Shown: positions 370 to 10,117 of the stretch, one piece after another
Position numbering within the stretch: position 1 is the first letter of the stretch
How the letters are laid out: the number at the start of each line of letters is the position of its first letter
NCBI GenBank assembly: GCA_050014495.1
Contig: JBEKDF010000062.1
Span: 1-10,778 of the forward strand
Reading direction: 5' to 3'
Origin: Candidatus Bathyarchaeia archaeon
GTDB taxonomy: Archaea; Thermoproteota; Bathyarchaeia; TCS64
Length of the DNA: 10,778 nt
Notes under the pieces: model-generated
Database searches by the model: none
Seen by the model: the letters and a program-made list of their open reading frames with translations, nothing else
What the model was told of the DNA's origin: nothing
Position numbers and translations under genes: made by a program

Positions 370-768
370 ATGGCAGAGCACATAGCAGAAAAAATCAAGA
401 CGGCTGACTGGAAAGCCGAAAAACATGTTCCAGTAATTGAATGTAAAGAGAAGATCCAAAAAGACGAGCTGTTAAACGTTAAATTATCAGTGGGTAAGGA
501 AATCAGTCACCCAAATACAACTGAACATCACATCAGGTGGATAAGGGCCTACTTTGTTCCGGAGGGTGGCACGTCCGCATACGATCTCGGATCATTTGAG
601 TTCAACGCCCATGGGGAAAGTGGCGCCGGTCCGAATAAGGGGCCTGTTTACACTCATCATGAGGTGAGTTTCTCCTTTAGGACGGGTCAATCAGGCACGA
701 TAAATGCCGTGTCATACTGTAACATCCATGGGTTGTGGGAGTCGTCTAAAATAATCCAAGTAGAGTAG
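370..768 (+). CDS. Class II SORL-domain protein (superoxide reductase / neelaredoxin-desulfoferrodoxin family)
   Basis: Iron-site motifs EKHVP, HPNTTEHHIRWI and YCNIHGLW are all present. There is no N-terminal desulforedoxin CxxC domain. Confidence 0.92.
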   Translation: MAEHIAEKIKTADWKAEKHVPVIECKEKIQKDELLNVKLSVGKEISHPNTTEHHIRWIRAYFVPEGGTSAYDLGSFEFNAHGESGAGPNKGPVYTHHEVSFSFRTGQSGTINAVSYCNIHGLWESSKIIQVE

Positions 769-824
769 TAAAAACGAGATTTGTACACTAAATAGTCACA
801 CGCATCTAACAGGGTTGTGGGATC

Positions 825-1301
825 ATGAGAATAATAGCTGGGATGGGCGAGTTCTTCAGACAGTCAAGGGTTGTCTTTATGACAACATTATCCGAGACGG
901 GTGAGGAACATAGCAGAGCCATGACAAACTTCAACGAAGATCCATACTCGATGATGTGGTTTCCGACATATACCAATACAAGGAAGGTGGATGACATCAG
1001 AAATAATCCAAAGGTGCTCATCCTTTTTCCAGCTCAGGAAGAGGGGGAGTATTACGAGATTGAAGGCATGGGAGAGTTAGCGGATGAGGTAGAGGTAAAT
1101 GAGAAATGGAGATGGTGGTACCTCTACTGGCGTCCTGAGATGGAAGACAAGTTCTGGTTCCCTAGTGATGGGATTCACCCTGAGAGGTCTTTGATTCATG
1201 TCTCACCGATTGAGGTGAAGTTGATTAAAGGGGTCAAATTCGAGAGATTAGTAGCTGAATTACCTCATGAATATCGCTATTACCTTAAAATAATAAGGTA
1301 A
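825..1301 (+). CDS. Pyridoxamine 5'-phosphate oxidase-like (FMN/F420-binding split barrel, general stress protein type)
   Basis: Signature 'SRAM...MWFPTYTNTRKVDDIRNNPKVLILF...YEIEG' followed by a Trp-rich segment and 'LIHVSP'. Confidence 0.8.
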   Translation: MRIIAGMGEFFRQSRVVFMTTLSETGEEHSRAMTNFNEDPYSMMWFPTYTNTRKVDDIRNNPKVLILFPAQEEGEYYEIEGMGELADEVEVNEKWRWWYLYWRPEMEDKFWFPSDGIHPERSLIHVSPIEVKLIKGVKFERLVAELPHEYRYYLKIIR

Positions 1302-1623
1302 AATACCGTTCACGTGCGCATAGCCACAATTGGACTTGTACTCCAAACCGTAATTGTGATGAGTGCAGCCAGCCGCGCGTGCGACGTTCCTTAATAGTAT
1401 TCGGATCGGAGGCTGACGTCGTCTTCAACTCAATAGAAGCCTTTGAGGCAGTCGTCGAGCGTTACCAAGCTTTGGAATAAACGAGTTCATATTCTACTAT
1501 CCTAAGAAGGAGGAGCAATCCCGGTTTTCGAACGCGCGCGGCTGCACACGCGCATACATCATCGCGGACATGCTGTACAGAAGGATAAATAAGGATCGAT
1601 TTACTTACTTTTTTTGACTCTGT

Positions 1624-1725
1624 ATGCCATGTAAGTGTAAAGAGTGTGGCGAAGTCTTCCCCAGTGCCAAGCAGAGAGATGCCCATGTAGCTAAAGCACA
1701 CTCGGAGAAGAAGAAGCCACAGTAG
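1624..1725 (+). CDS. 33-aa stand-alone C2H2 zinc-finger microprotein
   Basis: ATG 1624 to TAG 1723-1725 gives MPCKCKECGEVFPSAKQRDAHVAKAHSEKKKPQ, matching C-x2-C-x3-F-x8-H-x4-H with a basic tail. An A/T-rich box GATAAATA lies at 1584-1591. Confidence 0.75.
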   Translation: MPCKCKECGEVFPSAKQRDAHVAKAHSEKKKPQ

Positions 1726-1786
1726 ACGTGAACAGTCGCCAAACCTTCATAAAGCGAATGGACACATACCCATTTTCTGTCATCTT

Positions 1787-2026
1787 TCACTTTATCTTCT
1801 TAATAACTATTCGAATTGCACCGCCTTCATCATTGGTGCTGCTAACAATTTCCTGCCCAAGACGCTTAACGAGGCTGTGGATGTCTGAATCCGCAGCGGG
1901 ATCATCAGCGACAACCTCCAACGTCTCCCCTACCCCCATCTCATCCAACTCCAATCTCGTCCTAAAGACCGGCTCAGGGCAGTACAAACCCAAACAATCA
2001 AGCCTTCTATCGACGCGAGAAGCCAA
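1787..2026 (-). CDS. tusA: TusA/SirA-family sulfur carrier
   Basis: LDCLGLYCPEP (CPxP motif), 'GETLEVVADDPAADSDI' and C-terminal 'IVIKK'. Likely start is TTG at 2026 after a GGGGGAG SD, rather than 2071 which overlaps the dsrE-like gene. This gives 79 aa. Confidence 0.9.
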   Translation of the reverse strand: MASRVDRRLDCLGLYCPEPVFRTRLELDEMGVGETLEVVADDPAADSDIHSLVKRLGQEIVSSTNDEGGAIRIVIKKIK

Positions 2027-2061
2027 TAAATCTCCCCCAAAACATGTTGAGCTGGTAGATT

Positions 2062-2424
2062 TTAGAACCACATGGTAGCATTAGCATCCAATGCCAAGTC
2101 GTTAAGCGTAGCCGCACCCACGATTTTTACTCCCGGAATCAGGGTCACCTTGTCCCATCCTAGCATCTGCTTGGAGGCTTCGCAGACGTCGATTTCGATC
2201 CCCATCTGAATAGTCTTCTGGATCATCTCCGCGACGCTGGGAAAGGCTCCCAGCTTTATCTTTTCAGCCGCCCCAGGGAGCAGTATCTTTAGGCCTTGGC
2301 CCAGGAAGTAGACTTTAGGGTTCAGACCCATTGCTTTGGCTGTCTGAGCCAATACTAGGGGGGAGTACTGTCTCTCGGGTTGGTCGCTTGTCTGAACATA
2401 CAAGACGAATTTCTCATCTTTCAA
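2062..2424 (-). CDS. DsrE/DsrF-family protein
   Basis: 'VYFLGQGLKIL...GIEIDVCEAS...GVKIVGAATL' is typical of the DsrE fold, with the conserved Cys. TTG start is preceded by a GGTGA SD. Co-oriented directly upstream of tusA. Confidence 0.85.
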   Translation of the reverse strand: MKDEKFVLYVQTSDQPERQYSPLVLAQTAKAMGLNPKVYFLGQGLKILLPGAAEKIKLGAFPSVAEMIQKTIQMGIEIDVCEASKQMLGWDKVTLIPGVKIVGAATLNDLALDANATMWF

Positions 2425-2512
2425 AATACATTCACCAGTTACGTTTTACCCGTTATTGCTTCTTATTTCGTTCGAAATAAACATAATGCGAATGCGATAA
2501 CTCGACAATGGT

Positions 2513-2794
2513 TTAAGTTTGTGAACGAATCATCGAATTTTTCATGATCTTCCTACATTCAACGCTGAGAGCCCATCTGTCCCTTCCCCCACGAACCAGC
2601 ATACCCGACTTCACCAATTTCCTACGAATACTATCGTTGAAGACCTCACATGGTGACACTCCCCGCTCTATCCTCCTGAGATCCGAGGCGAAGCATATTA
2701 TGAGGTTCCGGTCGCTCCTCCGCTCGTTATCATCGACCTCCTCCTCATTCAGGGACGGTGAAGGCCTCTGTATTTGCGTGTAGTAGTGGGTCAA
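2513..2794 (-). CDS. Hypothetical protein, possibly winged-helix-like
   Basis: 93-aa ORF with an acidic N-terminus and a basic C-terminus 'RRKLVKSGMLVRGGRDRWALS' resembling a wHTH helix and wing. Start codon uncertain. Confidence 0.5.
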   Translation of the reverse strand: MTHYYTQIQRPSPSLNEEEVDDNERRSDRNLIICFASDLRRIERGVSPCEVFNDSIRRKLVKSGMLVRGGRDRWALSVECRKIMKNSMIRSQT

Positions 2795-2863
2795 TCTACA
2801 ACCATCCTCGTCTACATTAAAGTGATGCAGCGCAACATATGGATATGAGCCTGTGTGTACACC

Positions 2864-2931
2864 TACACGCGCGCATCCTAGCGTGTAATAATCTTATCCT
2901 CACTCCCACCTGATGCTAATGCGAGCGCGTA
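2864..2931. repeat. Inverted pair of the CG-alternating intergenic element
   Basis: TACACGCGCGCATCCTAGC at 2864-2882 faces GCTAATGCGAGCGCGTA at 2915-2931, whose reverse complement is TACGCGCTCGCATTAGC. Confidence 0.65.
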
Positions 2932-2985
2932 AGATAATTGCACATATAATATCTGGGATTCCGCGAAAACTATCGGTGAATAAGT

Positions 2986-3332
2986 TTGGTTCTACAAAAG
3001 AAGAATTTCCAGAAACCTGATGAGACTCAGACGCCTCAAGTTCAAGGGTAGACATCATCCGAATGGGTGACATGGCTGTTCTGAAACAAACGTATCAACC
3101 TGGGTGGCAATGGTCAAAACACCAGAAATCCATCGCGGGAACAAAATCCTGTCAAGTGCACCATTTCGGACTATTGCAATCAGGTAAGTTACATATGAAA
3201 GCTGACGATGGCCAAGAAATCGAACTTGGCCCAGGAGATGTAGTCGACATCCCGCCAGGACACGATGGCTGGGTAGTAGGAAACGAGCCCGCAACTTTCT
3301 ATTGGTTCCAAAGTAAAACAAACCCGAAGTGA
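2986..3332 (+). pseudogene. Cupin-domain protein gene with a 1-nt frameshift near 3033-3040 (pseudogene or assembly error)
   Basis: GGTGA SD at 2975-2979, then TTG 2986 reads MVLQKKNFQKPDETQTP before TAG 3049-3051. The -1 frame (open from 3024) continues SSSRVDIIRMGDMAVLKQTYQPGWQWS...SCQVHH...GPGDVVDIPPGHDGWVVGNEP to TGA 3332. Confidence 0.75.
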
Positions 3333-3334
3333 AT

Positions 3335-3365
3335 TACTCGCCGGGTAAGAGGCGGGTATCTTTTT
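3335..3365 (+). terminator. Hairpin plus T-run after the cupin stop
   Basis: TACTCGCC (3335-3342) pairs with GGCGGGTA (3351-3358) with one G-U pair, followed by TCTTTTT. Lies between convergent genes. Confidence 0.5.
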
Positions 3366-3399
3366 CAGGAATTTTCGCCTGCGTTTTTATGCGCCAATA

Positions 3400-4455
3400 T
3401 CACCGCCCCATAGGATGAGGCTCAGGGTGAGAATGAGGACCCAGCCAGGGATCCAACTTCGTCTTTATGTACACCCAGCCATCACCGTAGTCTAGCTGGG
3501 GTAGATGCATATTCTCGGAGTGACTTCTCAACCGAAAGCACCTATCAATCAGGTGATGAATCACGCGGACATCGTCCTCGTTGTACTCGAAGAACCGGGA
3601 CTCCAGCGGGGAGCCGTATTCAACGTGCCTCTGATACGCCTGTGCTACCTGTAGACCATCAAGGTCAGACTGCTTAAATCCATAGTTGAGGTACTTACCC
3701 AACTCCTTCAACGCGTAGCTGCTTTGTGGGAAGATGAAGCTCCTCCTCAGGAGAGTGCAGAGGTCAACATGGAGATACTCCTCAAGAGGATATGAGTCTA
3801 GCTCAAGCCGCTTCAAAGCCTTTAGGGTCACCCTGTAGTCGAAGCAGGTCCCCGAGTAACTCACCAGCGTATATCCTCTATGTATCACTAGGAAGCTCAG
3901 GAACTTCTCGAGGATGTCTTTCTCCTCCTCCCAACTCTCCGCGTAGAACTGGGTGAATCTACCATCGACTAGCAGTCCAATCAGCCAGACTCTGCTGCAC
4001 CTGTCATCGGTCTCGATGTCTATGTAGATAAGGCGGTCGCCTGGAAACTCGATCGACTCCGTCTGAAGAATCTTCCCGCTTACATAGGAGAGGGCTCGAA
4101 GTCGAATCTTGCGGAGCAGGGAAGCGGGTATTCCGAGTGGCTCCTCGAACTCTTCGATGTCAGTTATCTTGGCGATGTCGCCTATTGTTTCGAGGCCAAT
4201 TCCTCTCAGAACCTCAGAGTACCGTTTACCTATTCCATAGATGCTCTCAATAGGGAAACTCGCTGCTACACGGCTGCCTGTCCACCCAACCTCCGAGGCG
4301 TCATCGGGGCGACTCTGTGTTTCGATTGTCTCCTGCGAGGCTGATGCGTTCAAGGCATATTCGCTGGTGCCATTTTGGGCTGATAAGCAGTTGGAACGTT
4401 GCTGTGGGTTGGAGATCGGTGAAGGTGCCTTCTCACAACAGCCTTTTGCATGCAT
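3400..4455 (-). CDS. Helix-hairpin-helix + RNase H-fold DEDD exonuclease (RNase_H_2; YprB/TM0106 C-terminal type)
   Basis: HhH 'IESIYGIGKRYSEVLRGIGLETIGDIA', ExoI 'IYIDIET', ExoII 'SYSGTCFD', 'HVDL...SYALKELG', ExoIII 'YNEDDV'. The first ~60 aa are low-complexity and the true start is uncertain. Confidence 0.85.
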   Translation of the reverse strand: MHAKGCCEKAPSPISNPQQRSNCLSAQNGTSEYALNASASQETIETQSRPDDASEVGWTGSRVAASFPIESIYGIGKRYSEVLRGIGLETIGDIAKITDIEEFEEPLGIPASLLRKIRLRALSYVSGKILQTESIEFPGDRLIYIDIETDDRCSRVWLIGLLVDGRFTQFYAESWEEEKDILEKFLSFLVIHRGYTLVSYSGTCFDYRVTLKALKRLELDSYPLEEYLHVDLCTLLRRSFIFPQSSYALKELGKYLNYGFKQSDLDGLQVAQAYQRHVEYGSPLESRFFEYNEDDVRVIHHLIDRCFRLRSHSENMHLPQLDYGDGWVYIKTKLDPWLGPHSHPEPHPMGR

Positions 4456-4470
4456 AAGAAGGAGGGATGC

Positions 4471-4929
4471 CTACTTGGTACCCTTCATCCTCTTCTCGAC
4501 GCCGAGGATGGCGGCGATCTGCCCCTCATGATGGATTATCTCGCTCACCATAATCATCAAATAGTACTCGAGTGGCTTCTTGCCCTCCCATGCCTCTATC
4601 TCAGCGTCGAGCTTGTCATTAGTTAATTTGTTGAGGCCAGCGTTGAGCTTCCTGTGTCCCTTTTCTATGTCGGCCATGATTTTTTCCATTTTATACTTCG
4701 GGTTGCCAACGTAGTCCTTTGGCCAGTCTTTTGGTTGCGGTTCGCCTAATAATTTGGGTATATCGATGTTTAGCTCCTCACTCAGATGTGTGAGTATCCA
4801 CCTGATTGTATTTGCTTGGGTGCAGCTCTTCCAGTCGAGCTGCTCGGGCTTGAGGGTCTTCGTCGCACTCCCTAATCTGTCGAATCCAATCTGTGCGAAG
4901 TCCTTTATCATCTTCGTCTTGACGGTCAT
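4471..4929 (-). CDS. DinB/YfiT-family four-helix-bundle protein
   Basis: 'LKPEQLDWK...NTIRWILTHL' and C-terminal 'EIIHHEGQI' are DinB signatures. Confidence 0.85.
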   Translation of the reverse strand: MTVKTKMIKDFAQIGFDRLGSATKTLKPEQLDWKSCTQANTIRWILTHLSEELNIDIPKLLGEPQPKDWPKDYVGNPKYKMEKIMADIEKGHRKLNAGLNKLTNDKLDAEIEAWEGKKPLEYYLMIMVSEIIHHEGQIAAILGVEKRMKGTK

Positions 4930-5229: not shown

Positions 5230-6255
5230 TTACTGTTTTATCCTCTTCGAAAGATTTCGAGCGATCTTCACAGCTTCCTGAGCCACCTCTATCGGGTTTA
5301 TTCCGAAGAGAAAGACCATGGGCTCCTTCCCAATGCCACCGAGATCGTAGATCACATTCAGTGGTTCCTTCACATCTGAATACGCTCGTCTTATCCCCCA
5401 AGGTATCGTTTTACCCTCCATTACCCTAACTTCTTGTGGTTCGTCTCTTCTGTCGAAGTGAGAGATCACGAGTCCAAGTTCTTCGCATACCCTGATGACT
5501 TCGGCGTCGTACTTGAGGCTCAATGATGATCTTAGAGCAGGCTGAAGGGACATCATGGTTAGCGTGGCCCTAGCCACGTGTGATGACCCACCGAACTCTG
5601 GTGGTCTTGATGATCGTGGGTACCCTCCTATTGGGTGTATCCTGCCCGGAATCCCCACGATGTCGTTTATAGTATCTGCCTCTGGTTTGCCATATGTTAT
5701 GTTCATACCTATCTCGGGTATGAGGGAGGCAAGCTCTTTGCATCCCTCTATCAAGCTGAGGGATTGCCTCACCATGTCAATTATCTCCGCGTCCTCACGG
5801 GATCTCTGCTTGAATGTAGAGTAGTCCTCCACGCATACTGCGCAATTTATTGGTAGCTCCTCATATCCATCTCTATGGATTGCGCATATCGGTCCAAAGC
5901 TCCTAAGCTCCAAACATAAACCGCAGACTCTGCGTATGGCCTCTGTCTCAGTTAGCCTGCCGTCGATCCAATCCTCTGATATGTCCTTGGCGAGTGTCTC
6001 TATCTTCGTGACTCCTCTGAGCTCCTCCCTGGTCCGTGGTTTGCTGTGTAGGTAGCTGGAAACCGCGGGCTGAGTCACACCAACTATCTTAGCAGCCTGC
6101 AGTTGACTAATCCCCCTGTTGACAACTAATTCCCTCACGAGGGCTTTTCTCATGAGGGGTAACAGTTGCTCCGTTACTATCTCACAGGGTAGTCTGATCC
6201 TCACCTCGTCGCGTGGGGACCTCTTCGACTTCTCCTCCCCTTCCATGATGTTCAA
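5230..6255 (-). CDS. ThiR-like regulator: N-terminal HTH + Cys/His-rich linker + ThiN (thiamine-phosphate synthase) domain
   Basis: 'LPCEIV...GISQLQAAKIVGVTQPAVSSYL' HTH, linker 'CGLC...CAIH...CAVC', and ThiN motifs 'LIPEIGMNI', 'GIPGRI', 'PEFGGSSHVAR', 'DLGGIGKEPM'. Alternative start ATG 6246. Confidence 0.85.
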   Translation of the reverse strand: MNIMEGEEKSKRSPRDEVRIRLPCEIVTEQLLPLMRKALVRELVVNRGISQLQAAKIVGVTQPAVSSYLHSKPRTREELRGVTKIETLAKDISEDWIDGRLTETEAIRRVCGLCLELRSFGPICAIHRDGYEELPINCAVCVEDYSTFKQRSREDAEIIDMVRQSLSLIEGCKELASLIPEIGMNITYGKPEADTINDIVGIPGRIHPIGGYPRSSRPPEFGGSSHVARATLTMMSLQPALRSSLSLKYDAEVIRVCEELGLVISHFDRRDEPQEVRVMEGKTIPWGIRRAYSDVKEPLNVIYDLGGIGKEPMVFLFGINPIEVAQEAVKIARNLSKRIKQ

Positions 6256-6264
6256 TAAACGATC

Positions 6265-6281
6265 CTATAAGCTGCTTATAG
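6265..6281. promoter_or_regulatory. Palindromic operator candidate CTATAAG-ctg-CTTATAG upstream of the ThiR-like gene
   Basis: Perfect 7-bp inverted repeat in the 36-nt gap between the NTase stop and the regulator start. The same core occurs at 8734-8748. Confidence 0.6.
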
Positions 6282-6291
6282 TTGTTAGTCT

Positions 6292-7068
6292 TCACCTAAC
6301 GAGTTCCTCGACCTCATCCCACCATTTTTTCCTGGTTCCAACCAGCTTCCTCATCTCCCAGTTCCTAGACTTTGGCTCGGAATCGATTATTGTATTTATT
6401 TTCTCAATCTTGATCTTTAGTTCGTTGAACTGATTCTCTTCGACGCTTGGATCACTCCTAAGTAATCTGTTGAGGTTAGATTTCGCATCGAACCAGAAGC
6501 CCCAGTCATCGGCTAAAACGGATGCTATCCTTGAAACGTTAATAGATTCGGTGGCATCAACGTCGGTAAGAGGGTGTTCGAGGATTAGAATTTGTAGATC
6601 TCTTCTATCCTTCTCCTCAAGTGTGTGTATCTGAAGTTTAGATAATACAAGATCAGCGATCGTTAAGGTCGGGAAATCCAGCTCGATTCTCGCCGGCGCT
6701 CCCTCAGGTCGCAGGTTAATTTGATGGTTGAAGCGAAGTTTTTCGAAGAAGATGTCCACGGTGTATCTCCGTTCTGGATTGTGGAACATGAAGCGTTCCT
6801 CCCCGAAGTACGCCATAACGTAGCGGTCAGCGGTGTAGCCTGCGTCAATGAATAGATCATTCACTTCGACTTGTTTCGCTCTGTAAGTAACCATATCGAC
6901 GTCTTTTAACCCGTTTTTCTCCCGCTCAGGAACGTTGAGTCGATTTGTGTGGTTGTGGAATTCAATCGCAGCTCCACCAGTGAGCCTAAGGGGGATGCCC
7001 CACTTCTCTGCCTCCTCCACTAACCTGAGGGCATCGTTGAGGATCGGCTCAGTGATCGGGTTTGTCAA
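6292..7068 (-). CDS. Uncharacterised nucleotidyltransferase-fold protein (Pol beta superfamily-like)
   Basis: 'LRLTGGAA' + 'KDVDMV' (DxD) + 'TVDIF' (third Asp), then 'DLVLSKLQI...EKDRRDL'. TTG start lies 10 nt after the permease stop. Confidence 0.72.
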   Translation of the reverse strand: MTNPITEPILNDALRLVEEAEKWGIPLRLTGGAAIEFHNHTNRLNVPEREKNGLKDVDMVTYRAKQVEVNDLFIDAGYTADRYVMAYFGEERFMFHNPERRYTVDIFFEKLRFNHQINLRPEGAPARIELDFPTLTIADLVLSKLQIHTLEEKDRRDLQILILEHPLTDVDATESINVSRIASVLADDWGFWFDAKSNLNRLLRSDPSVEENQFNELKIKIEKINTIIDSEPKSRNWEMRKLVGTRKKWWDEVEELVR

Positions 7069-7078
7069 GCAGATCTAC

Positions 7079-8695
7079 CTACACTGGCGGGATCTCTTTG
7101 AAGGCGAGGTCAATGTCGACCCCCTGTCTGGCTCTGATGAATCTTATTATCCAATACAGGACGAAGCCTACAGCTATCATGCCAAAGTTCAGGAATAGGG
7201 CGTAAGGTGTTGAGATGCCGAACTGCGGGTATGCTATGAAGATGTATGCGATGGCGACCACGAAAGCCGCCTCAATGACTCCGAATATGGTTATTATCGG
7301 GATTCCGATTATCTCGCGCTTAATCGGTGAAGCCTCGTAGATGTCCTTTCTCCTGTATGGTAGTAGGGCTGCCGTGATCCCTGGGAGGAACATGCAGCTG
7401 AACGCTGGTCCGATTATTGTGGAGAAGAGGAAGGTCCAGAAGGCATCTGGGAAGATGGCTACTATCACAAGGAAGGCTTCGCATATCAGGAATATTGCTA
7501 GGTTTGTATAGGTCGGTGTGTGGAACCTCGGGCTGACCTCCGAAAGCTTCCCTGGCATCAGTCTATCCATCGACCAGGCGAAGATGTTGCGGCTGATCTG
7601 GAGGTAGATGACTACCGTGTAGATCAGGGTGCCAGCGAGGGCCATTCCGAGTACGGCGAGTGCCGCTAACACTGGGTTCTGTGTGACGAGGCCAAAGAAC
7701 GCCGTTATCATCTCCAGCGCGTTGCTCCAGGGTAGTCCCTGAGGATTATACGTGGCGAGGTAGCTGACCGAGGCCAAGAAGTTGTATCCAATGGTCCTGA
7801 ATGCGTAGTAGAAGAGCAAGGCGAGGAAGAGTAGGTTGAATAGCCCGGCGCCGGCCATTGAGAATAGATTTCTCTTGACGGAGCCGGCCTCCTTCACCTC
7901 GCCGGCGATGTATGCTGAGTAGAATGTCCACCAAACCGCGTTGGTTGCTATGGCGAGTAGGGGCCAATCAAATGTGAGAGGAGGTGCGTTGTATCCTCCC
8001 TGATTCGCAGCATCTATGATAGATTGGTATGGGTTCGCTGCGGCTCCGAACTGACCTCCATAGCTATGCATGAAGGAGTTGAATATTCCTATGAATCCCT
8101 GATTTCCGACAAGGACCAGAGAAATGAGGGCTACTCCGATGCCGGCGATCATGATGAGCCAGATCGCATTGTTCGCGATCAGCATCCTCTTTGTGCCTGA
8201 TAGGGCGAGTAGTGTGAATACCACGTTTAGGAGTGAGCCGACGACGAAGGCGACTAACGGGGTCATCAGCGCCAACCCGATGTTGATTATGGCCTGGTTC
8301 CCCAGGAGGTACCCGATTATGTGAAATCCGGGACCTAAGCCGTAGAAGCTGATTAGGTAGAAGTTGAAGGCGAGGAAGAATGTCTGCCAGAAGACGAGGC
8401 TGAAGTTGAAGCCGAAACCTAGGGATGGGTGCAATACCCTGCTGTTGAACACGTAGTCCCCACCGGATCTTGGGAATGTGGAGACCAGCATCGCGTACAC
8501 TATCGCGATTGAGAAGGCGAGTAGAACTAGTGGGAGAGCCGAGAGGACATCCCCGCCGTTGGCGAAGGTTACAGCGAAGGCGTAGTTTCCGATTACGCTA
8601 GCGAAGGAGCTCGCGGATGAGTTGTAGATGAATGTGTCTAAGAGTGAGGCCTGACGGATTAGTCCCGAGGTCTTCCTGGAGAAGGCGCTGGACAT
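7079..8695 (-). CDS. APC-superfamily (amino acid/polyamine/organocation) permease
   Basis: 538 aa with about 12-14 hydrophobic segments. Motifs 'FSRKTSGLIR', 'FPRSGGDYVFNSRVL', 'AYIAGEVK', 'SRNIFAWSMDRLMP...HTP' and terminal 'FKEIPP'. Confidence 0.92.
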   Translation of the reverse strand: MSSAFSRKTSGLIRQASLLDTFIYNSSASSFASVIGNYAFAVTFANGGDVLSALPLVLLAFSIAIVYAMLVSTFPRSGGDYVFNSRVLHPSLGFGFNFSLVFWQTFFLAFNFYLISFYGLGPGFHIIGYLLGNQAIINIGLALMTPLVAFVVGSLLNVVFTLLALSGTKRMLIANNAIWLIMIAGIGVALISLVLVGNQGFIGIFNSFMHSYGGQFGAAANPYQSIIDAANQGGYNAPPLTFDWPLLAIATNAVWWTFYSAYIAGEVKEAGSVKRNLFSMAGAGLFNLLFLALLFYYAFRTIGYNFLASVSYLATYNPQGLPWSNALEMITAFFGLVTQNPVLAALAVLGMALAGTLIYTVVIYLQISRNIFAWSMDRLMPGKLSEVSPRFHTPTYTNLAIFLICEAFLVIVAIFPDAFWTFLFSTIIGPAFSCMFLPGITAALLPYRRKDIYEASPIKREIIGIPIITIFGVIEAAFVVAIAYIFIAYPQFGISTPYALFLNFGMIAVGFVLYWIIRFIRARQGVDIDLAFKEIPPV

Positions 8696-8719
8696 CGCCT
8701 TAATTCTTCAACCATGGTG

Positions 8720-8750
8720 GTTATAAGTAATTATATAAGTGACTTATAAC
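8720..8750. promoter_or_regulatory. Divergent promoter/operator with nested palindromes
   Basis: GTTATAAGT (8720-8728) and ACTTATAAC (8742-8750) form a perfect 9-bp inverted repeat. TATAAG-tga-CTTATA is at 8734-8748. TATA-like boxes for both directions overlap within the 66-nt gap. Confidence 0.7.
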
Positions 8751-8761
8751 TCGTTGAGGTT

Positions 8762-9712
8762 GTGGCTAGGACCCGACTCTTCTTCGCGACGGACATACAC
8801 GGTTCGGTGACATGCTTCCTAAAATTCCTGAATGCATCTAGGGTCTACAAAGCCGACGTTATGGTCTTAGCGGGCGACCTCAGTGGAAAACTCCTAATAC
8901 CAATCGTTGAGCGTGGAGACGACTCATACGAGTCAACGTTCATGGGGGTTCGCCATGTCGTATCAGAAGGGAAACGAACTGAACTTGAGGAGCGTATCCG
9001 TAGGGTGGGTTCCTATCCTCACATTATGAGTAAAAATGAGTACGATGAGCTTCTCAGGAAACCCGAAAGGGCTAACGCCCTCTTTGAGGGTCTGATAAGG
9101 GAGAGAATCGAGAAGTGGGTTACACTAGCGGATGATAGACTGAGGGGGGCCTCGGCGGAGTACTATGTCTCAGGCGGCAACGACGATTTCCCCTGGGTGG
9201 ATGAGCTATTGAAGAAATCCCGATCCTTCACCGACGGAGAGGGAGAAATAATCCGAATCAGGGGTCGGAATGAGATGATGACCTGTGGGTGGTCGAACCC
9301 CACACCATGGGGAACGCCAAGGGAAACGAGTGAAGATGACCTGACGAAGAGGATAACGGGCCTCACTTCGGAGGTCGAGTCGATGGATGGATGCATCTTC
9401 AACCTCCACGCCCCTCCTTACGACTCTGATTTAGATGTGTGTCAGAGGCTAAGCGAGGAACTGAAGCCAATCTTCGTTGGAGGACAACCCGACGTATTCA
9501 ACGCCGGTAGCGTAGCCGTCCGCAGGTGCATAGAGGAGCTCAAGCCGATGCTGGGGCTCCACGGTCACATACACGAGTCTAGAGGTGTGGCCATGATTGG
9601 GAGGACAACCTGCGTTAATCCGGGGAGTGAGTATGCGGAGACGATCCTGAGGGGTGCTATTCTCGACATCGAGAACAACCATGTCAAGAACCACATCCTC
9701 ACATCAGGCTGA
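8762..9712 (+). CDS. Calcineurin-like metallophosphoesterase (Icc-related)
   Basis: Five MPP motifs: TDIHG, AGDL, GGNDD, LHAPP, HGHIHE, then 'VNPGS'. GTG start is preceded by GAGGT. Confidence 0.92.
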   Translation: MARTRLFFATDIHGSVTCFLKFLNASRVYKADVMVLAGDLSGKLLIPIVERGDDSYESTFMGVRHVVSEGKRTELEERIRRVGSYPHIMSKNEYDELLRKPERANALFEGLIRERIEKWVTLADDRLRGASAEYYVSGGNDDFPWVDELLKKSRSFTDGEGEIIRIRGRNEMMTCGWSNPTPWGTPRETSEDDLTKRITGLTSEVESMDGCIFNLHAPPYDSDLDVCQRLSEELKPIFVGGQPDVFNAGSVAVRRCIEELKPMLGLHGHIHESRGVAMIGRTTCVNPGSEYAETILRGAILDIENNHVKNHILTSG

Positions 9713-9910
9713 CGCCCCACATAGTGAAGTTTGACTATCATCAAAATTCGAAAGAACGACACATAATTTCACAGCTTGTTACGACATAAGTTAGTCATGA
9801 AGATTAATCCCAATTGGTTTGTCCAATTGTGGCACTCAAGAAGGAGCCATCACGAGCGCACCACTCGTCGCCTCAAATAAGGGCCCTACCATGATATCAA
9901 AGAACCCGCA

Positions 9911-10021
9911 ATTATGGTACCATTCCATAATTCAAGTGAAGCTAATTCGCTCGCACCCATTAATTCGGTAGGTAATAAATAATGGTACCATTTCTCAAAA
10001 CAATATTATGGTACCATTCCA
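9911..10021. repeat. Three copies of palindrome ATGGTACCAT(T)
   Basis: ATTATGGTACCATTCCA occurs identically at 9911-9927 and 10005-10021. The perfect palindrome AATGGTACCATT is at 9981-9992. Confidence 0.85.
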
Positions 10022-10117
10022 CTTCGTATACTCACTATAGAGTCCATTAAATCAACTCCAAAAATGCAAGTGATGGTTTTCATGTAAACACCAATAAGAC
10101 GGATTGTGCAGAAGATC

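Follow-up and report, generated by a model that had tools for sequence, protein, structure and literature searches.

A conserved permease, nucleotidyltransferase and phosphoesterase gene trio with a copy very likely belonging to an archaeal ThiR regulon

Results

A trio of genes beside thiR

An APC permease, a nucleotidyltransferase (NTase) and a metallophosphoesterase (MPE) form a recurrent gene trio, and the copy in the window (the whole stretch of 10,778 nucleotides analysed here) very likely lies within a ThiR regulon and serves thiamine salvage. This placement is based on operator footprinting, on the thi and YlmB-like neighbours of orthologous loci, and on the displacement of CytX or Bmp-ABC transporters. 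The explanation of the locus as a whole is more tentative: ThiR would control an importer of the HMP type that is gated by NTase/MPE nucleotidylation of the permease. The novelty lies in the trio, the ThiR regulon alone being a further case of a known regulon type. The features of the locus are as follows.

5230-6255, minus strand: thiR (HTH-ThiN), start at TTG 6255 or ATG 6246, PF10120 match
6266-6280, no strand: palindrome TATAAG-N3-CTTATA upstream of thiR, likely ThiR operator (autoregulation)
6292-7068, minus strand: NTase, Pol-beta-fold nucleotidyltransferase, PF14907-related, GG/DxD/D site intact
7079-8695, minus strand: APC permease, PF13520, trio-specific subfamily of the APC superfamily
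7082-7123, minus strand: permease C-terminal motif G-x6-[FY]-x-E-I-P-P, candidate partner-docking tail
8654-8683, minus strand: permease N-terminal tail motif F-x-R-x-[AST]-[ST]-G-L-x-R, residues 5-14
8666-8668, minus strand: Ser10 of the permease, candidate modification site
8734-8748, no strand: palindrome TATAAG-N3-CTTATA in the divergent permease/MPE promoter, likely ThiR operator
8762-9712, plus strand: MPE, calcineurin-like metallophosphoesterase with a TT1561/aq_1956-like fold

The four open reading frames, their gaps of 36, 10 and 66 nt (45 nt before thiR if it begins at ATG 6246) and the common palindrome in both regulatory gaps agree with the earlier note on this DNA. The note was also right that the window holds no canonical thi gene; a thiW-thiDN pair is located terminally on contig C19, and this contig overlaps the first 36 bases of the window. 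The C19-window join is ambiguous because contig C69 shares the same 36-base overlap. The thiR product consists of an XRE-type HTH, a Cys-rich linker and a ThiN domain, the latter matching PF10120 at 7.8e-53 (179 bits) and the former matching HTH_3 at 19.9 bits, below the Pfam cut-off. The HTH region is kept in an alignment of 13 homologues, and the product could also be aligned with ThiDN. It is likely a thiamine-phosphate-sensing repressor. Full-length homologues were found at 21 loci in 20 of 301 genomes of the class.

The trio is a conserved unit

All three trio genes are present in 81 of the 100 genomes that have any of them, out of 301 genomes of the class, and the trio is complete at 58 of 80 actinobacterial loci, bearing out the conserved linkage of NTase, MPE and APC permease that the earlier note had anticipated. 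Co-occurrence of the genes across the 301 genomes (Jaccard 0.84-0.93) and the correlation between NTase and MPE copy numbers (rho 0.79, with per-genome counts of at least 7-9 at the upper end) are both inflated by kinship among the genomes. An MPE accompanies the NTase at 54 of 61 archaeal loci and an APC permease at 52, with gene order and strand shuffled. Stand-alone NTases exist, since 7 of the 22 actinobacterial NTase loci without the MPE/permease pair are near full length. Some genomes of the archaeal class carry up to at least 7-9 paralogous sets, and in 32-33 of 33 cases a paralogue had its nearest relative in a different genome.

Co-occurrence with an APC permease was thus confirmed by gene neighbourhoods, whereas ThiR or thi genes lay nearby at just 4 of the first 61 archaeal loci and at none of the 80 bacterial ones. 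With so few loci near such genes, a thiamine-specific trio family is ruled out. Neighbours of other trios include aminotransferases, MttB, amidases, hydantoinase and adenine deaminase. In each of the three gene trees, the five ThiR-linked copies group as a single clade (support 99-100); they adjoin thiW, thiDN or a YlmB-like gene, the neighbours in orthologous loci comprising thiW, thiDN, thiM, thiE and YlmB-like genes. Searching the whole phylum for the window permease, at E 1e-60, matched 2 of 401 genomes and yielded no additional member of the ThiR clade.

The three proteins evolve at different rates: identity stays at 40-44% for the NTase and MPE and falls to 24% for the permeases. On deep pairs, the MPE and permease trees agree (rho 0.62 versus a null maximum of 0.16), and the NTase and permease trees give a rho of 0.11, inside the null. 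In both linkage and co-evolution, the MPE is bound more closely to the permease than to the NTase. Exchange of NTases between permeases would be allowed, because the permease tail motif is conserved. Inter-protein coupling analysis of 116 trios gave no usable signal at an effective depth of 52.

The palindrome is a likely ThiR operator

The 3.1-Mb genome contains just two exact copies of the palindrome TATAAG-N3-CTTATA, those at 6266 and 8734. By itself, the exact 15-nt pattern has no genome-wide specificity: it is matched in 13 of 79 genomes of the order and a reversed control pattern is about equally frequent, so that a single exact match per genome is near background. What makes it significant is where the copies lie and that they are conserved. 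Four other genomes have both copies in the same gaps, and the 8734 copy, which overlaps TATA-like boxes of both directions, is present at all four other ThiR-linked genome loci and at 6/6 further metagenome loci spanning the permease/MPE gap. Scanning with a 15-nt core matrix from trio-free thiamine loci ranked the two copies first and second among 3.1 million positions, and a matrix with 2-nt flanks ranked the 8734 site first and the 6266 site 29th, ranks that are partly circular because the training sites were selected for likeness to the window palindrome. The 8734 site is the genome's best under both matrices.

Thirteen trio-free ThiR loci contain 30 intergenic palindromic sites. With at most one mismatch, TATAA-N5-TTATA is found 2.4 times per 10 kb in these loci, compared with 0.6 for other loci with the trio and 0.5 for the genome as a whole, and similar sites precede thiW, thiC, thiT, tenA, thiR, cytX and the Bmp operon. 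When 61 trio loci were scored with the operator matrix, the four ThiR-linked loci came out on top. The palindrome is therefore likely the ThiR operator, and in all probability ThiR binds it and represses at high levels of thiamine phosphates. That thiR is a mere chance neighbour of the trio is ruled out, since clade, operator and thi genes agree. Exact-pattern matches were also observed beside unrelated genes in genomes G123, G104, G267, G065, G030 and G183, with two in G135.

Archaeal ThiR regulons (Rodionov 2017; Hwang 2017) are described as comprising an HTH plus ThiN regulator and palindromes before thiamine synthesis and transport genes. The present regulon resembles them in these features and in its clustering with thiW, thiDN, thiC, tenA and thiT, and differs in that the transporter under its likely control is an APC permease accompanied by two enzymes as partners. 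In the window's family a TPP riboswitch, not the palindrome, precedes thiW.

A thiamine pyrimidine as the probable cargo

The 21 full-length thiR loci include the trio in five cases, an NCS1 permease in four and a Bmp ABC system in four; both NCS1 permeases tested passed the CytX cut-off. The five trio genomes showed neither an NCS1 permease nor an orthologue of the ThiR-locus Bmp protein, and NMT1/ThiY-type binding proteins gave only short, weak matches in them. Because eight other ThiR loci hold CytX or Bmp-ABC in the slot of the trio, the trio likely imports a thiamine pyrimidine. The cargo is rather likely to be an HMP-type pyrimidine, which ThiDN would couple to thiazole from ThiW and ThiM; ThiDN is kept in all five ThiR-linked genomes. 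ThiC was not seen in four of the five trio genomes. G219 has ThiC and G198 has it beside its Bmp system, and HMP synthesis and uptake are therefore not mutually exclusive. The cargo may differ between trio genomes, as TenA was not seen in four of the five. In G048 and at L268-L270, the trio has a PRK08596 M20 hydrolase as its immediate neighbour; we take this neighbour to be YlmB-like, which points to FAMP or AmMP, both without the hydroxyl.

The trio shares its regulon slot, its neighbours (PRK08596 hydrolase, TenA, ThiD) and its predicted job with CytX (NCS1) and with ThiXYZ-YlmB-TenA salvage, but CytX and the trio permease belong to unrelated families. CytX is not known to depend on a partner enzyme, and ThiXYZ is powered by an ABC ATPase. 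The window permease did not match the NCS1 (CytX, TIGR02358) profile and would work like CytX without being a member of that family. It matches AA_permease_2 (PF13520) at 1.1e-17 (64.6 bits versus a cut-off of 27), and its profile matches solved amino-acid/APC transporters (E 1e-28 to 5oqt/6f34). Its N-terminal tail motif is complete in 115 of 116 trios, with the Ser10 position occupied by S or T in all 116 (68 T, 48 S), and is absent from the three other APC matches in this genome and from 5/5 weakly related bacterial permeases. In the C-terminal motif, G525 is conserved in 115/116 and P536 in 116/116 trios.

Two enzymes with intact active sites

A Pfam search with the window NTase returned no match, PF14907 included; many of its 110 homologues carry PF14907 (NTP_transf_5), as does 19% of its top Atlas cluster. 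The hGG motif, the DxD, the third carboxylate and the NTase fold are all present. G31, D56, D58 and D105 are invariant among the 110 homologues, and in 116 trio rows the first three are invariant and D105 is conserved in at least 98%. The AF2 model (pLDDT 93) has MenT1 and ANT(2'')-Ia (both Z 11.9) and LnuA (Z 10.3) as structural neighbours, the top Foldseek match being MenT1 (5.8e-5), and cyclases and CD-NTases match weakly. A profile search against PDB sequences gave nothing significant (best relevant match AadB, E 0.45). ANT(2'')-Ia, LnuA and MenT1 are the closest solved folds (Z 10-12, rmsd 3.0-3.5, 136-169 residues aligned), but identity is only 10-18%, the gene context is different, and the NTase has extra C-terminal helices that carry invariant W/K/R residues.

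The MPE, labelled Icc-related by its source name, has only weak Metallophos matches in Pfam. Its AF2 model (pLDDT 96) matched 2yvt at 4.5e-12 and 1uf3 at 4e-9 in Foldseek, and structure prediction accordingly upheld both folds named in the earlier note, that of a metallophosphoesterase (2yvt, 1uf3) for the MPE and of a nucleotidyltransferase (MenT1, ANT(2'')-Ia) for the NTase. TT1561 and aq_1956, themselves uncharacterised by their PDB titles, are the closest solved folds and have the full metal-ligand set in common with the MPE, which differs from them in its 12-15% identity, an 80-residue insertion and a GNDD motif. The seven binuclear metal ligands (D11, H13, D39, N140, H216, H269, H271) are conserved in at least 97%. 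The position of the GNH His is D141 in 116/116 trios, and by motif count an invariant Lys43 occupies the Arg position of monoesterases (Arg after GDxxD). According to a study of CthPnkp (PMC2190708), this histidine binds phosphate, is required by CthPnkp for Mn-dependent monoesterase activity and is linked to cyclic-nucleotide hydrolysis, and its replacement favours acyclic diesters in the CthPnkp/MJ0936/YfcE precedent. By this analogy the MPE looks like a diesterase, and, given Lys43 at the Arg position, it may have monoesterase activity. A cAMP phosphodiesterase was rejected as an assignment because the histidine tied to cyclic-nucleotide hydrolysis is missing.

A candidate switch and its alternatives

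Our best guess is that the NTase and MPE would form an opposing protein-modification pair, the second of the two ideas offered in the earlier note. ThiR would repress the trio when thiamine phosphates are high; the permease would import HMP or a close precursor; the NTase, as writer, would put a nucleotide on the cytoplasmic tail of the permease, and the MPE, as eraser, would take it off, with this cycle gating uptake. That both enzymes have the permease itself as their substrate, the acceptor being Ser10 and the MPE being docked on the permease, is given slightly less than an even chance. In favour of the switch are the higher conservation of the enzymes than of the permease, the nearest relatives of paralogues in other genomes, the deep co-evolution of MPE and permease, the invariant S/T in the tail, the Asp in place of the GNH His and the intact active sites. 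Against it, agreement between NTase and permease on deep pairs stays within the null, a weaker relation than expected for a reader of its cognate tail, and the closest NTase folds act on small molecules (ANT(2''), LnuA) or tRNA (MenT), not on proteins.

An unlikely alternative, though the least so of those considered, is group translocation, in which the NTase would O- or N-nucleotidylate the imported molecule and the permease-bound MPE would cleave the resulting diester, so trapping and releasing the cargo. ANT(2'')-Ia and LnuA, the nearest small-molecule folds, are O-adenylyltransferases, HMP offers a primary hydroxyl and could directly yield HMP-phosphate, and the MPE is diesterase-like and shows co-evolution with the permease, as expected of an enzyme specific for the cargo. 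However, the substrates of other trios' neighbours have no acceptor group in common, although the active sites of the two enzymes hardly vary; the HMP kinase ThiDN is kept in all five genomes; FAMP or AmMP, the presumed cargoes beside a YlmB-like enzyme, would have no hydroxyl to modify; and the invariant tail Ser/Thr is left unexplained.

An improbable reading has whole thiamine, or a thiamine compound bearing a phosphate or adenylyl group, imported and processed with the MPE as thiamine-phosphate phosphatase. It is consistent with the ThiR regulon and would serve this genome, in which no ThiT, ThiC or full-length Thi4 was seen. Nevertheless, the displaced transporters are CytX-type, the kept ThiW, ThiM and ThiDN assemble thiamine from halves, and G162 and G219 carry ThiT alongside the trio. 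An MPE acting on TMP, THZ-P or HMP-P fits poorly, because the CthPnkp-type histidine is missing. Of the import-and-process module proposed in the earlier note, the thiamine-salvage role within a ThiR regulon is supported, whereas thiamine-specific processing by the NTase and MPE is not supported: the enzymes occur at mostly non-thiamine loci, outstrip the permeases in identity and include an MPE without the monoesterase His. The trio enzymes are probably not thiamine-specific.

Still less probable is transceptor signalling, with the permease sensing cargo, the NTase making a diffusible nucleotide messenger and the MPE degrading it. The Pol-beta fold does include cyclases and CD-NTases, and the name Icc-related would suit such an MPE, but its missing histidine is the one tied to cyclic-nucleotide hydrolysis in PMC2190708, no recurrent receptor gene was found among 74 annotated neighbour clusters, the many paralogous sets in a genome are insulated, and the module occupies the transporter slot of a repressed salvage regulon. 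A MenT/AbiEii-like toxin acting on RNA, reversed by the MPE with the permease as passenger, is very improbable despite the first place of MenT1 in Foldseek and its joint top Z, given that the MPE is tied more closely to the permease than to the NTase, that MPE and permease, with no recurrent antitoxin-like gene, are the constant neighbours in 61 archaeal and 80 bacterial loci, and that the genes are under a vitamin-salvage operator.

Returning to modification of the permease, a stronger version, which we consider improbable, would have an NTP-consuming nucleotidylation/hydrolysis cycle at the tail Ser/Thr drive the APC carrier, making it a new class of primary active transporter. The trio would then replace an ABC system for trace thiamine precursors, and its paralogues would do so for many other nitrogen compounds.

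Discussion

A literature search, which left subscription journals largely uncovered, found no known system matching a permease family with a constant NTase and phosphoesterase of its own, and we know of none that fits. The trio is common in the archaeal class and in soil Actinomycetota, and its mechanism bears on organic nitrogen uptake. Unlike the other copies, the window locus offers a regulator and an operator, together with a short list of purchasable candidate cargoes and a single mutable residue. A thiamine-precursor cargo would be a first testable substrate for asking whether the enzymes switch the permease on and off. If the switch model is true, it would represent direct nucleotidylation of a prokaryotic transporter; if the cycle drives transport, it would represent a new energy-coupling mode.

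GlnD/PII/AmtB and GlnE are nucleotidylation switches. The trio resembles GlnD and GlnE in pairing a Pol-beta NTase with a hydrolase of opposite action, the pair being proposed to control a transporter of nitrogen compounds, but differs in its separate writer and eraser genes, its calcineurin-like eraser and its own set for each permease. PII does not recur near trios, with none among the annotated 74 of 90 recurrent neighbour clusters, although targets need not be linked. A weak search for NTase fusions among 7,996 candidates found no longer NTase form, and a search for longer MPE forms yielded four singletons. P0116 is an in-frame MPE-permease protein of 860 aa with one member, on a single 2.7-kb contig, whose junction resembles a lost stop, and P0117 and P0118 include out-of-frame stretches; all three fusions were discounted on these grounds. 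The candidate writer and eraser are encoded separately in 116 of 116 trios.

Genes of the window

ORF calling in the window, contig C62 of a 3.1-Mb genome that the names of close homologues assign to Bathyarchaeia, recovered the four genes of the earlier note with their gaps of 36, 10 and 66 nt:

5230-6255, minus strand: thiR, HTH-ThiN regulator
6292-7068, minus strand: nucleotidyltransferase (NTase)
7079-8695, minus strand: APC permease
8762-9712, plus strand: metallophosphoesterase (MPE)
6266 and 8734: palindrome TATAAG-N3-CTTATA, candidate ThiR operator

Permease, NTase and MPE (the trio) are each present in one copy in this genome. Pfam searches gave the thiR product a ThiN domain plus an HTH match that was weak, identified the permease as AA_permease_2, and yielded weak matches only for the MPE and no match for the NTase. 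G31, D56, D58 and D105 are all retained in the NTase, whose AF2 model (pLDDT 93) structurally matches MenT1, ANT(2'')-Ia and LnuA; that of the MPE (pLDDT 96) matches aq_1956 and TT1561.

Unrelated genes lie left of thiR (370-4929): a desulfoferrodoxin-type superoxide reductase, a PNPOx-like protein, a TusA/DsrE pair, a cupin, an RNase_H_2/TM0106-like nuclease and a DinB-family protein. Downstream of the MPE, at 9910-10029, a 26-nt repeat built around the palindromic core ATGGTACCAT occurs three times, possibly as sites for another regulator, and short elements containing GCGCGCG/CTAG in intergenic gaps (~176, 2868, 4977, 5194 and 10506) possibly form a small mobile or repeat family. Bases 1-36 are identical to the ends of both contigs C19 and C69, and a cupin frame continues across the join; if C19 is the true neighbour, ~6 kb is inserted between thiR and a riboswitch-thiW-thiDN operon.

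The trio is a conserved unit

The NTase profile matched 103 of the 301 genomes of the archaeal class (91 strongly), the MPE was found in 91 genomes, the permease subfamily in 92, and of the 100 genomes that had at least one of the three genes 81 contained all of them. Sixty loci were fetched out of 327 NTase matches, picked from 150 listed on score, contig size and spread; with the window included, the MPE was present in 54 of 61 NTase loci and the permease in 52, with gene order and orientation varying. The bacterial sample comprised the best 80 of 586 matches, all Actinomycetota owing to the query chosen, and both partners occurred in 58 of these 80 loci (35 of 42 among full-length loci). 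ThiR was present in just 4 of the 61 archaeal loci, and none of ThiR, ThiW, TenA or ThiDN lay near any of the best 80 of 586 bacterial loci. The trio is a conserved unit that is for the most part not about thiamine. Its other neighbours (74 of 90 neighbour clusters annotated) encode diverse nitrogen-compound enzymes, including class III aminotransferase, MttB, acetamidase, hydantoinase, adenine deaminase, choline kinase and FAD oxidases.

Several variants were observed. A second, divergent NTase subfamily (~305 aa; L246:8929-9843, L247:1125-2051, L252:1346-2284, L255:2510-3598) lies beside some MPE-permease pairs, alone or next to the canonical NTase. Three kinds of accessory gene recur beside non-thiamine trios, none matching Pfam: in 8 loci a protein of 210-270 aa with roughly two membrane helices, in 10 loci a pair encoding one membrane and one soluble protein, which are fused in L083, and in 7 loci a soluble protein of 170 aa (L035:4602-5279, L049:11393-12181, L057:7779-8767, L067:8895-9593). 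The metagenomic singleton P0116 is an 860-aa in-frame MPE-permease fusion, which may stem from a lost stop codon, and the NTase homologues P0096, P0103 and P0110 (420-440 aa) carry an additional N-terminal domain and a Pro-rich linker.

A trio copy in a predicted ThiR regulon

The window's genome contains exactly two copies of the palindrome, and both copies, noted in the regulatory gaps, are kept (one with a mismatch) in the other ThiR-linked trio loci, in genomes G219, G162, G048 and G135. The genes after thiR in G219 and G162 are thiW, a P-loop gene and thiDN; in G135 thiDN adjoins the MPE, and in G048 a PRK08596 hydrolase gene sits between NTase and thiR. A metagenome search with the permease returned nine loci, one of which was the window itself. 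Among the eight others, five carried thiR, thiDN, thiW, thiM/thiE or the PRK08596 gene (the remaining three were too short or had none), and all six spanning the permease/MPE gap contained the palindrome. In the trees of NTase, MPE and permease alike, the five ThiR-linked genome copies grouped together as a single clade (support 99-100; 75 rows, 40 of 47 bacterial rows omitted), so the ThiR-linked trio had one origin rather than five.

At trio-free loci the motif, often in tandem, lies upstream of thiW, thiC, thiT, tenA, thiR, cytX and a Bmp operon. A 30-site matrix was built from these loci; its core version ranked the window sites 1 and 2 among 3.1 million positions, and the version including flanks ranked them 1 and 29. 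Since the training sites were picked for likeness to the window motif, the independent evidence is position before thiamine genes, not rank. These sequence patterns very likely place this trio copy in a ThiR regulon, the palindromes being its predicted operators; ThiR function is as described in PMC12029414 and PMC10746257.

A TPP riboswitch was found in 8 of 13 sources scanned, before thiW genes without the palindrome, and at none of the four loci whose thiW has palindromes. This alternation fits a thiamine-responsive role of the motif. The riboswitches (RF00059, 57-67 bits, above the gathering score) lie 5' of thiW in the window's archaeal order, at G000:C19:50910-51018 in the window's genome (L261), L031:8033-8141, L032, L108, L114, L119, L121, L136 and L138. 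Archaeal TPP riboswitches are known chiefly from Thermoplasmatales, and our literature search found no report of them in Bathyarchaeia. Between thiW and thiDN, nearly all thiamine loci of the class encode an uncharacterised 185-aa P-loop protein with only weak family matches (L031:8696-9253, L108:9773-10360, G000:C19:49801-50355), a candidate thiazole kinase or energising partner of ThiW.

Likely cargo

The full-length thiR loci numbered 21, from 20 genomes: five had the trio, four an NCS1 permease (both of the two tested exceeding the CytX cut-off), four a Bmp ABC system, three thiC with thiW, and two only thiW/thiDN/tenA; G150 had thiC, thiW and thiT, G037 no thiamine gene, and G070, on a short contig, no visible thiC/thiW. 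Neither an NCS1 permease nor, in a search without positive control, an orthologue of the thiR-locus Bmp protein was seen in the five trio genomes (completeness 84-96%). Searches of the window's genome revealed ThiW, ThiM and ThiDN and no ThiC, full Thi4, TenA or ThiT, so it would need outside pyrimidine, and HMP, the thiamine pyrimidine, is the simplest cargo candidate for the permease. Counter to a strict pyrimidine-import picture, ThiC is present in G219, ThiT in G162 and G219, and TenA in G048 alone among the five. The PRK08596 model, which we take to represent the YlmB family, scored above cut-off in one control genome. Bacillus YlmB converts FAMP to AmMP (PMC10470507). The Bmp/PnrA-family ABC transporter preceded by the ThiR motif (L108:1128-5704, L114, L121, L122:8954-13623) is itself a candidate uncharacterised thiamine-precursor importer.

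Co-evolution and a candidate modification site

Across 116 cognate trios, median archaeal identity was 40% for the NTase, 44% for the MPE and 24% for the permease, and trio paralogues were almost never mutual nearest relatives. Conservation of the enzymes over the permeases suits a shared enzyme substrate and permeases with differing cargoes. MPE and permease trees agreed deeply: over 2,179 deep pairs rho was 0.62, against a null maximum of 0.16, and the two trees had 27 supported splits in common. The NTase agreed at the tips only, with a deep rho of 0.11-0.17 that lay within the null and 18-19 splits in common. Permease cytoplasmic tails are subfamily-specific; position 10, within the motif F-x-R-x-[AST]-[ST]-G-L-x-R, is Ser or Thr in 116/116, the sole such column in the permease, and the motif is absent from 8/8 unlinked permeases. 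The MPE keeps all metal ligands, but an Asp stands in for the His of GNH and a Lys occupies the position of the Arg.

In the mechanism that we rank first, though tentatively and jointly with the proposed cargo, the permease would carry a covalent switch: the NTase would put a mark on the tail Ser/Thr and the MPE would take it off. According to PMC2190708, CthPnkp depends on the GNH His and the Arg to act as an Mn-dependent monoesterase and on the His to cleave cyclic nucleotides, and enzymes without this His are acyclic diesterases; a seryl-NMP bond is an acyclic diester of that type. The mark could also be phosphate, since NTase-fold enzymes can phosphorylate Thr (PMC11375011). Nucleotidylation of the cargo by the NTase, ranked second, is less likely; whole-thiamine processing by the trio enzymes comes after it, then messenger signalling, and a toxin-antitoxin reading ranks last.

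A full-text literature search, covering few subscription papers and no ThiR supplements, found neither the trio combination nor PF14907 in a related context. The parts are known folds and the ThiR regulon is of a known kind; the trio departs from GlnD/GlnE, MenAT and CytX in defining features. This copy links the trio to a regulator, a predicted cargo and one specific testable residue, Ser10 of the permease tail.
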